DNA from: an uncultured Alphaproteobacteria bacterium
GTDB lineage: Bacteria > Pseudomonadota > Alphaproteobacteria > Rhizobiales > Hyphomicrobiaceae
DNA length: 64,000 bases
Direction: 5' to 3'
NCBI GenBank assembly: GCA_963753045.1
Contig: CAVWAT010000011.1
Location: 21,306-85,305, forward strand
Shown here: one piece after another, positions 14,525 through 16,829 of the stretch
Position numbering within the stretch: the first letter of the stretch is position 1
How the letters are laid out: each line of letters begins with the position of its first letter
Translations under genes and position numbers: made by a program
Notes under the pieces: generated by a model
Told to the model about the DNA's origin: nothing
What the model saw: only the letters and a program-made list of their open reading frames with translations
The model's database searches: none

Positions 14525-16165
14525 GTCCTACGTCAGGAACATTGGCATGTCGGCGGACAACAGATCTCCGTTTCACTGACCAAAGCCAGTGATCTCAAGT
14601 TAACGTCATCCAAGCGGCTTCCGCCGTCAAGGAAGAAGCTCTCATCCATAGCGAACACAGGATCCATGACGCGCATACATGTGGTCCTCACCGTCCTCAA
14701 CACGAGATGCAATTCCAAGCGGAAGACCCGAGCATTATCTACAGGGTCGCCGATGCGCCCTCACGGCCCATACGGATAGAGGTTCTTCCGCTTGGTATCG
14801 GCTCTTCGATGAAGGGCCGATAATCGGTACCGGTCTTGATGACGGCGTGTGCAGTGCGCGCCATCTTCGCGGTAATGGCTGTCAGCGCTTTGCGCTTGAG
14901 ATCGGCGTTGCCGCGATCCTTCGCGATGTAGCGCTCGAACTTGGCTCTGAAGCTGTTGTCGCGCTGGCGGATAGCGACCTGGGCTGCCATCCAGAACGCG
15001 CGCCGCAGCCGGGCATTGCCGAACTTCGATAGCTTGGTTTGTCCGCGGAACTGTCCGGATTGATGTGTGGCCAGGTCAAGTCCGCAGAACTTCAAGAACT
15101 GGCGGTGATGTCGGAAGCGGCGCAGATCTCCTGCTTCCGCTAGGATCGTCATAGCGATGATCGGACCGATCCCTGGCACCTGGCGCAAGCGCTGGTAATC
15201 GGGGTGGTCGCGGAGGGCAGCATCGGCCTGACGCTCGATCTCGTCGCGTTGCCGGATCAAGCTGCGCCCCTCGTGCAATGACCATCCGGAACATCGCGAT
15301 AGCGGGGCTGTCGAGATCTGCGGGCAAACCGATAGAGGATTGAGCTGTCTCGTAAATATCTCCAAGAAGCCGGGCTTTCGAGACCTTCTTGCCGACGACA
15401 TCCCAGGCCGCGTCGATGAAGGTGTCTTTGTCGTGCACAGTGATACTCGCCGGTGTCGGGAATGCCTCAAGGAAGGCCAGGAACCAGTCGCTGCGCGAGT
15501 TGCCAGCGAACCTGGCTGCTTCGGGAAAGTAGAGCGGCAGATAGTGCGTCAGCAGTCGATGCCAGAGTTCCGTCTTGGCCTTAGAAACGACCTCGTGCGT
15601 CTTCGACAGTTCCTGGATATCGTTGATGCCCGCGCGGATCGGATCGAGGTAGGTCTGCGTCGCGCCGATCCTGAGCATGTGGAGGATGACCTGGGCGTCC
15701 TTCGGATCGTTCTTGTCCCAGCCGTTATGCAGAGCCTCCCGCGTTCGTGCGAGCGCGACCGAAGAAACGAGGCGAAGCTCGAAACCTGCCTCAAGCAGAC
15801 GATACGCCAGCGGTCTGTGATAGTTGCCGGTCGCTTCGAAACCCGCGAGCACCGGAGCGCCAAGATCCTTGAGCAAAGAGATGAAATGATCGTGTTCCGT
15901 CCGCGTGTTGGGCACGACCAGCCGCCGTCGGCGAGTCCCTCCTGGCACCTCGATCAGCACGTCATTGCGGTTCTTGGAAACGTCGATGGCTACCAACGCG
16001 GCATCCGGTTGGCGTAGATCTTTCGTCTGGTCATGGTCGGGCTTCTCCAAAGTGGTGATTCGACACCTTCACTTTAGAGATCTGCAGCCCGGCCCTGACC
16101 GCCTGCCTGCGTGTTGAGGCGCCACAGGCGATCAGGGCCTCCAAAGACCAAGTTCCTGATGTGCT
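14525..16165 (-). mobile_element. Full-length IS110-family element (~1.64 kb) with subterminal inverted repeats
   Basis: Boundaries defined by rejoining the IS3 SDN-GPE codons; IRs tcaggaacattgg (14533-14545) and ccaagttcctga (16148-16159); non-coding ends ~130 nt (5') and ~215 nt (3'). Confidence 0.9.
14739..16034 (-). pseudogene. IS110 DEDD recombinase, frameshifted near 15290 and at the start
   Basis: VAIDVSK, FEATG, KNDPKDA, VPGIGP, HQSG, GNARLRRAF motifs. Confidence 0.9.
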
Positions 16166-16829
16166 ATGGGCCCGAATTCATCGCCAAGAACGTGCGAGGC
16201 TGGCTTGCTCGGATCGGCGTCAGGACGCTTTACATCGAGCCTGGCAGTCCGTGGGAAAACGGCTATTGCGAGAGCTTCAATTCGAAACTCAGAGACGAAC
16301 TGCTAAACATGGAAATCTTCACAACGCTGCGAGAAGCCCAAGTGCTGATCGAGCAATGGCGACGTCATTACAATGCGGTCCGGCCGCACTCTTCACTCGG
16401 CTACCAGCCCCCAGCACCGGAAGCGATCTTGCCTCCAGCATCTGAACTGACCTACGCTACGCTCCGGCCAGCCCAGATGCTGGCCAAGGGCGGCCGGGTT
16501 CTAACTTAAACACTGGCACCGTGATTGGGGGCAGGCCATTGTTTTTGAGGGCAATATGAGAGGGGCAGAGCACCGGCTCCGGCGCCAGGAGTTCCCAAAT
16601 GCGATCTCTCAGGGCCGATATTCTCTGGACCTCATGACTACGCGCATTTGGTGAATTTATTTCAAGACGCTGAAATAAAATAGATTTAAGTAGGGCTAGG
16701 CCGAACACTTCGACACCAGTGGCACTCGGTGAGATGGAATAGAATTCGAACGTTTGCCGGCATTCGTGAGCCGAGCGTGGTAGGGACGACGCCCCCCTGC
16801 TCCATAGCCATGTTTCGCCATTGTCGCCC

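Follow-up and report, generated by a model that had tools for sequence, protein, structure and literature searches.

Several elements of the IS110 family of insertion sequences (IS) are known to be guided by an RNA, and the closest described systems differ in where this RNA lies. IS621, like ISCro4 a bridge-recombinase element (Durrant et al. 2024, PMC11208160; Hiraizumi et al. 2024, PMC11208158), has a 326-amino-acid (aa) enzyme and a REP-like target, and its bridge RNA is located in the left end. For ISEc21 (Siddiquee et al. 2024, PMC11187229), with its 358-aa transposase and a seekRNA in the upstream non-coding region (bp 8-179), homing to the catalytic codons of IS3-type transposases has already been published. 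The order reported for IS110-type RNAs is a bottom-strand match 5' of the top-strand match (PMC11187229; PMC11208160). In the IS1111 group, where the transposases have 330-350 aa, the top-strand match comes first in the seekRNA, 5' of the bottom-strand one (PMC11187229). Here we describe an IS110-family element that is present in two copies in a 64,000-nucleotide (nt) stretch of DNA from an uncultured Alphaproteobacteria bacterium of the Hyphomicrobiaceae (assembly GCA_963753045.1, contig CAVWAT010000011.1, positions 21,306 to 85,305; the window in what follows). The left ends of the two copies are identical and the adjoining coding sequences (CDS) are not; we propose that the identity probably goes back to exchange between the copies, and that the candidate guide RNA of the element most likely lies at the other, 3' end.

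The identical run is 141 nt long (10236-10376 = 16026-16166), i.e. slightly longer than the 136 nt (10241-10376 vs 16031-16166) that an earlier reading of the letters alone (the sequence-only reading) had reported. On the minus strand it extends from the T of the left core dinucleotide to ATGACCAGA (start codon plus 6 nt). Beyond it, about 110 nt of CDS are roughly 90% identical and contain both substitutions and indels, in good agreement with the earlier estimate of about 11 differences, many of them synonymous, in the next 113 coding nt or so. An ungapped 92-nt block (10126-10217 vs 15914-16005) holds 7 substitutions, which in minus-strand codons are synonymous in 5 cases (GCT/GCC, GTA/GTT, CTC/CTG, ATT/ATC, TTG/CTG) and nonsynonymous in 2 (AGC/AAC, TCT/ACT), and the approximately 20 nt separating this block from the identical run have at least 3 indels and 2 substitutions. 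If the changes were uniformly spread over the 251 nt, the probability that all 10-12 of them fall in the 110-nt part would be about 5e-5 to 3e-4. The proportion of synonymous changes (5/7) has a probability of about 0.02 under random mutation, which argues that the CDS difference is an old divergence filtered by selection and not a local decay.

Both copies split IS3-family rve genes between the S-D-N and G-P-E-F codons (D-N|G), and they are the only copies of the element in the assembly (4.7 Mb, a draft of 19 contigs). Copy 2 is situated between ...GACAA(C) and GGGCCCGAATTC and is full length, while copy 1 is a stump of the left end. In copy 2 the DEDD_Tnp_IS110 domain (PF01548, 15301-16035, E = 3e-18) and the Transposase_20 domain (PF02371, 14742-15299, E = 4e-28) are in different frames, and two +1 insertions, seen relative to copy 1 and to every relative, are found just past the start codon. 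As intact relatives have a single continuous open reading frame (ORF) of about 432 aa, copy 2 is a pseudogene. The stump retains the family reading frame and length, and both copies are dead in this genome. By its N-terminal DEDD and C-terminal Transposase_20 domains the element is an IS110-family RNA-guided (bridge) recombinase. An intact relative (L012) scores 208 bits against the NCBIfam model NF033542, 'IS110 family RNA-guided transposase' (cut-off 140), and its C-terminal domain matches the structure of the IS621 transposase (8wt6, E = 3.6e-18).

For comparison, 80 loci with relatives of the element were fetched (labels L012-L089 among them; 67-84% amino-acid identity). The lineage is found in many Alphaproteobacteria and a few other groups, with at least 599 matching stretches. 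The readable junctions among the 80 relatives read ..CC|[G/A]T|AGCAC (left) and TAGGAC|GT|TGTC (right), i.e. insertion is site-specific, without target duplication, and a short core is common to donor and target. Nearly all relatives have [A/G]TAGCA at their left end, and a 55-row alignment shows no variation in it. In most loci the flanks encode the motif ..(S/T)DN|G.E(F/Y) of rve-type transposases. In L057 two copies meet head to tail in ..CATAGGAC GT AGCACC..; this is either a tandem dimer or a circle junction that became integrated, and it bears out the sequence of the donor junction (TAGGAC GT AGCAC).

The sequence-only reading had taken the identity of the two ends as a sign of strong constraint on a functional RNA or element end. 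A comparison of 151 pairs of family members shows that the left end does not diverge as fast as synonymous sites: its divergence is 0.29-0.36 times that of four-fold degenerate sites and 0.73-0.89 times that of the overall CDS. The constraint is real but moderate, and it fails to explain the complete lack of differences. From the rate ratios 4-9 differences are expected in 141 nt and 0 are observed; for the probability of this outcome by constraint alone, the point estimate is about 1e-4 and the most favourable bound about 0.04. We also compared 18 family pairs in which a homologous 89-nt CDS block is 88-95% identical (92% in the two copies studied here). Their left ends differ at 1-24 positions, with a median of about 10, and in no pair at 0. 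A scan of metagenomes for exact matches to this left end was negative, and a degenerate scan found 14 relatives, none of which is closer than 13 differences in 141 nt (the nearest have 13-25).

Mosaic structures are present elsewhere in the family. The pairs L044/L070 and L054/L070 have blocks of 98-100% identity adjoining blocks of about 90%; in L044 vs L070 the 3' third is 98-100% identical and the rest about 90%, and the left end has 1 difference beside a CDS start that is 11% diverged. In the window, the identical run is bounded by the element end on one side and by a family-wide conserved block, ..GACCGACCATGACCAGA (around ATGACCAGA), on the other. This block is a natural resolution point for a recombination tract between diverged copies. 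Given that differences were to be expected and that the family has mosaic members, the identity is more likely due to recombination or gene conversion. The two copies would stem from lineages that had become about 8% diverged while still under protein-level selection, and their left ends would have been homogenised later by homologous recombination or gene conversion. We hold with moderate confidence, in a judgement that covers the whole explanation given here, that the identity arose in this way between two now-dead copies and not by selection.

The same joint judgement includes the role of the left end, which would be a structured donor end and regulatory leader and not a guide RNA. As DNA, its terminus AGCAC and sub-terminal repeat would be recognised by the recombinase; as RNA, it would serve the recombinase mRNA as 5' leader and contain a long hairpin, a second hairpin that would hide the ribosome site and so control translation, and a 15-nt box that would pair with a box near the right end. 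The left non-coding end has 132 nt and the right one about 215 nt. The predicted fold of the 141-nt RNA has an energy of -73.1 kcal/mol (z = -6.4 vs 200 shuffles), and both stems proposed from the sequence alone are present: 16125-16139 pairs with 16091-16105 (15 bp, one G.U), and 16070-16079 pairs with 16045-16054, covering GGAG. Helices were evaluated by the percentage of alignment cells paired in register and by the number of pairs changed on both sides, both compared with slid-register controls. The ribosome-site hairpin has 86% of its cells paired (slid controls 32-56%) and 6 of its 10 pairs changed on both sides, so that constraint on a structured leader is the part of the earlier claim that stands. 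A bridge RNA in this end is unlikely, as conserved target-matching segments are lacking: no positionally conserved match of at least 7 nt to the target was found in the left end, and scattered, non-conserved ones appear once G.U pairs are allowed. The sub-terminal inverted repeats CATCAGGAAC / GTTCCTGACG covary weakly (7.87 of 11 positions paired in cognate vs 6.93 in non-cognate combinations; 0 of 5000 permutations). RNAalifold gave no consensus structure for the whole left-end alignment, hairpin 1 being variable in length, and the named helices were tested instead; a scan of positions 9000-18000 of the window against Rfam (E up to 1) matched no family.

A bridge RNA is most likely to lie at the 3' end, at about 14618-14789, where it would run from the last 50 nt or so of the CDS about 130 nt into the right non-coding region. 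The sequence-only reading had named this end as an alternative location, which is now favoured by invariant matches to target and donor and by covarying helices. It had seen no convincing guide segments by eye in either end; this holds for the left end, where none is conserved, but candidates were found in the 3' end. The alignment of this region (62 sequences) contains a common block, ..GCCGU-GAGGGC(hairpin)GACCCU-GU-AGAUAAUG.., in which GCCGU and GAYAAUG are invariant or nearly so and match the family target ..GCC|GT|TGTC. Five aligned sequences have GACAAU instead of GAUAAU, which still pairs. The stem closing this putative target-binding loop (GGAAGRACC/GGGYCUUCC) shows compensatory changes at synonymous codon positions. 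A block of the same design, ..GAGGACGGU-GAGGRCC(hairpin)GGAYCCU-GUGUUYGCUAUGG.., forms the putative donor-binding loop. For helices T0, Td, P2 and P3 together, pairing amounts to 95.6% (slid controls 31-52%), and 13 pairs have changes on both sides. Among the 62 intact ORFs the stop codon is found at 9 different offsets (0 to -36 nt) and the guide motif is kept regardless, so it is not conserved as coding sequence.

In terms of mechanism, the target loop (GGGCCGU and AGAUAAU) would read ..GGNCC|GT|TGTC, the reverse complement of GAY AAY | GGN CCN (D-N|G-P), and the donor loop (AGGACG and GCUAU) would read the joined ends of the element itself. The U residues of the guides would allow G.U pairing with either synonymous codon (GAC/GAT, AAC/AAT); with U placed where the third codon base varies, one guide could reach many IS3/IS481-type genes. 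A further helix, P1, has 97% of its cells paired and double changes in 5 of its 7 pairs. P1 and the basal stem of the target loop (14719-14729 with 14618-14624 or 14781-14789) share CUUCC and are mutually exclusive, and both have compensatory changes, i.e. the candidate RNA may switch between two folds. An initial candidate for the left target guide, CUCGGGUC, just past the stop codon, was dropped, since a covarying stem uses its bases as 3' strand. A further hairpin (14574-14591, CACUGGC UUUG GUCAGUG) lies between the proposed bridge RNA and the box at the right end; it is kept in relatives with a different stem sequence, and many relatives have a TTGAC motif just upstream of it.

The element resembles ISEc21, as both are RNA-guided DEDD elements that are aimed, without target duplication, at the codons surrounding the second catalytic D in transposases of the IS3 family. 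In both, the bottom-strand match stands 5' of the top-strand match in the RNA (PMC11187229); here, in the candidate RNA, GGGCCGU, identical to the top strand, precedes AGAUAAU, which is complementary to it. The description of ISEc21 sets it apart from our element, where the transposase has about 432 aa, the candidate guides are downstream and overlap the CDS end, and the upstream region has no recognisable guides. With IS621 and ISCro4 the element shares a core dinucleotide common to donor and target and a homologous C-terminal domain (the 8wt6 match given above), and its candidate RNA would share their two-loop design, in which the 5' guide corresponds to the top strand of the left half-site and core and the 3' guide is complementary to the core and right half-site. 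Unlike in IS621, a 3' position is proposed for the RNA, whose candidate guides have U opposite the purine wobble positions of codons. A bridge RNA in the left end combined with a short right end, as is characteristic of the IS110 group, was not found, the candidate guides being in the right end of about 215 nt. A long downstream non-coding region with a guide RNA (here a candidate one) and sub-terminal inverted repeats (CATCAGGAAC / GTTCCTGACG; group range 7-17 bp) are features of the IS1111 group (ISEc11, ISKpn4, IS4321/IS5075), from which the element is set apart, going by the description of that group, by the reverse match order and the protein of about 432 aa.

Other explanations of the identical left ends need to be discussed. 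Purifying selection alone would require that every position of the 141-nt left end is needed, either as RNA or as a DNA end. The low rate (about 0.3 times that of four-fold sites), the structure and the covariation of the left end fit this account, and at large distances the left end is better conserved than the N-terminal CDS. However, its loops and spacers vary freely among close relatives, the comparable pairs have 1-24 differences and never 0 (probability about 1e-4 to 4e-2), active close copies with many left-end differences at a CDS difference of at most 10% have already been seen in other clades, and the two copies, being dead in this genome, are under no selection now; we find selection alone rather unlikely. 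The identity could also mean conservation of guides, if the left non-coding end encoded a bridge or seek RNA as in IS621 and ISEc21. Such an RNA is upstream in most IS110-type elements (PMC11208160, PMC11187229), ISEc21 aims at the same kind of IS3 codons with an upstream RNA (PMC11187229), and the left end is strongly structured. Yet no conserved segment matches the target in either strand sense. A single match recurs, GUUGUCG in a hairpin loop, but it has the wrong side and the wrong strand and lacks conservation; the 3' region has two loops of one design with invariant matches to target and ends. A guide in the left end is, in our opinion, very improbable.

It is also conceivable that one recent element gave rise to both copies, and that the coding differences of the stump are damage from error-prone repair beside the deletion junction at 10126. 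This would suit the clustering of the indels and the position of all differences within 110 nt of the junction, but not the excess of synonymous substitutions (5/7, P about 0.02), and the indels sit in the full copy 2 and not in the stump, which keeps the family frame and length. We give this account a small chance. Finally, reads of one copy could have been used to correct the other during assembly or polishing. The region is a dense nest of IS fragments in a genome of 19 draft contigs, and the three frameshifts of copy 2 could include sequencing errors; but read collapse yields one copy and not two in different, internally consistent flanks, the block is shorter than typical reads, and its boundary coincides with a biological element end and a conserved block, so that an artefact of this kind is hardly credible.

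There are also points that weigh against the explanation we prefer, i.e. exchange between the copies of an element with a leader at its left end and a guide RNA at its right end. The CDS overlap is only 89-110 nt, which makes the expected range of differences wide (about 3 to 9) and raises the probability of finding 0 to as much as 0.04, and there is no third copy in the assembly that might have donated either segment. We infer that the 3' RNA is made and guides recombination, and the same is true of its ends and its promoter; a sigma-70-like promoter was not found in the element. In the left donor guide only AGGACG agrees with the right end; an extra G then precedes the U. The left flank of copy 2 itself (GGGCCC|AT) is an imperfect fit to the left target guide (5-6 of 7). 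Finally, target and termini are near-invariant family-wide, and guide-target covariation, the strongest test, therefore has nothing to measure.

In IS10 and IS50 a leader hairpin hides the ribosome-binding site and stray transcripts remain untranslated, which is known as fold-back inhibition. A leader hairpin over the ribosome site is predicted here too, but unlike in IS10/IS50 a distant box near the other element end is predicted to pair with the strand that hides the site. In 30 distinct elements this pairing between the leader box and the right-end box (IR2-LE and IR2-RE) has 88.8% of its cells paired in register vs 38-47% when slid, and cognate pairs exceed non-cognate ones in 5000 of 5000 permutations. 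Departures from Watson-Crick pairing comprise 51 sense-strand G.U vs 19 A.C, which points to pairing of RNA rather than of DNA. The last four bases of the leader box also pair with GGAG, so on paper the long-range pairing and the sequestration of the ribosome site are mutually exclusive; the predicted energies are -20.8 kcal/mol for the IR2 duplex and -13.8 kcal/mol for the ribosome-site hairpin. When artificial junction RNAs were folded by minimum free energy, the ribosome site changed its state in only 6 of 15 and was not consistently freed. The covariation makes it possible, though we think doubtful, that the two boxes form a long-range RNA switch in which pairing of the right-end box with the leader box would make the ribosome site accessible. 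Translation of the recombinase would then be limited to RNAs carrying the right end (full-length mRNAs with the 3' bridge RNA, or circle-junction transcripts), enzyme output would be coupled to the presence of the guide RNA, and read-through transcripts from the host IS3 gene would be silenced.

Table 1. Positions of the two copies and of their observed and proposed parts in the window (strand -, minus strand).
Feature	Position	Strand	Remarks
Copy 2, full-length inactivated IS110-family element, cores included	14523-16167	-	Ends defined from 80 relatives; Pfam domains in different frames
141-nt block identical to 10236-10376	16026-16166	-	Left-end non-coding region and first 9 nt of CDS; pairwise alignment
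Left terminus AGCAC (right-donor half-site) and sub-terminal inverted repeat CATCAGGAAC	16152-16165	-	Partner 14531-14540
Hairpin 1, 15-bp stem	16091-16139	-	Long GC-rich hairpin always present; sequence and length vary among relatives
Leader box IR2-LE (GGGCUGCAGAUCUCU)	16076-16090	-	15 nt, complementary to 14555-14569; last 4 nt (CUCU) pair with Shine-Dalgarno GGAG
Predicted hairpin sequestering the ribosome site (CUCUAAAGUG / CACUUUGGAG)	16045-16079	-	Covariation
Family start codon ATG	16032-16034	-	Out of frame with the catalytic domain in copy 2 owing to two +1 insertions
Proposed target-binding loop	14721-14789	-	Basal stem GGAAGAACC/GGGUCUUCC, two target guides, distal hairpin
Candidate left target guide GGGCCGU	14763-14769	-	GCCGU equals top strand of left half-site and core (..GCC|GT)
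Distal hairpin of target loop	14743-14762	-	Covarying
Candidate right target guide AGAUAAU, spanning the stop codon	14734-14740	-	GAUAAU complementary to core and right half-site ([A/G]TT[A/G]TC)
Proposed donor-binding loop	14639-14707	-	Stem UCUCG/YGAGA, two donor guides, distal hairpin
Candidate left donor guide GAGGACGGU	14690-14698	-	AGGACG equals right terminus and first core base (TAGGAC|G)
Distal hairpin of donor loop	14659-14689	-	Covarying
Candidate right donor guide GCUAU	14648-14652	-	Pairs with [A/G]TAGC at left terminus
Helix P1, 3' strand GCGGAAG	14618-14624	-	Pairs with CUUCCGC at 14719-14725
Right-end box IR2-RE (GGAGAUCUGUUGUCC)	14555-14569	-	Complementary to the leader box; 45 nt from the right end
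Right sub-terminal repeat GTTCCTGACG, terminus TAGGAC, core GT	14523-14540	-	TAGGAC|GT|TGTC at right junction of nearly all relatives
Copy 1, 250-nt left-end stump in another IS3-family rve gene	10126-10377	-	Flanks encode ...YIRSDN / GPEFLAAP..., rve by Pfam

Some further observations concern the element's ends and its targets. The core dinucleotide is asymmetric (16166-16167 and 14523-14524 in the window; L012-L089): on the left it is AT in nearly half of the cases and GT in the others, and on the right it is always GT. The left core base seems to come from the target and the right one from the donor, as would be expected if only the top-strand exchange product is recovered. Six relatives (L022, L032, L039, L044, L045 and L066) have a 12-nt near-duplicate before the left terminus, [A/G]TAGCA(C/G) G.GCC, with different outer flanks. 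It consists of the left-end tip and a target-like left half-site, and could be the footprint of an earlier event or indicate a longer true end. The break of the stump, GGTC|GT|TGTC (10115-10135), resembles the true right end GGAC|GT|TGTC and is joined to an intact right flank; it could be the product of a recombinase event at a pseudo-donor site or of a microhomology deletion.

The genome itself has 33 unoccupied GAYAAYGG....GARTW sites vs 1 in a reversed control. One IS3-like element (GACAATGGGTCTGAGTT) accounts, through its copies, for about 17 of the 33, and most of the empty target-like sites have GACAAT. With its two dead copies, the IS110 hunter seems to be extinct in this genome while its IS3 prey thrives. 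A repeated 28-31-mer in the window (11253-11283 and 14481-14511) lies at the orfA/orfB junction of two IS3 elements and adjoins early-orfB deletions.

That two IS copies agree perfectly in a non-coding end does not in itself demonstrate function; in the present case the identity overlies a real, moderate constraint and is better explained by exchange between the copies. The element provides a readable natural example of a candidate bridge-type RNA that lies 3' in an IS110-type element and overlaps the end of the element's own gene, with candidate guides that would be aimed at the D-N-G codons in the catalytic core of other transposons. This IS110 lineage lives as a parasite on other insertion sequences. 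Leads on how such elements control their expression come from the leader-to-right-end pairing and from the two covarying helices that exclude each other, and the covarying 15-nt pairing is the one feature that is possibly new. The targeting habit has already been published; we point to the leader-to-right-end pairing and to the candidate 3' guide that overlaps the gene as the parts that are worth experiment.

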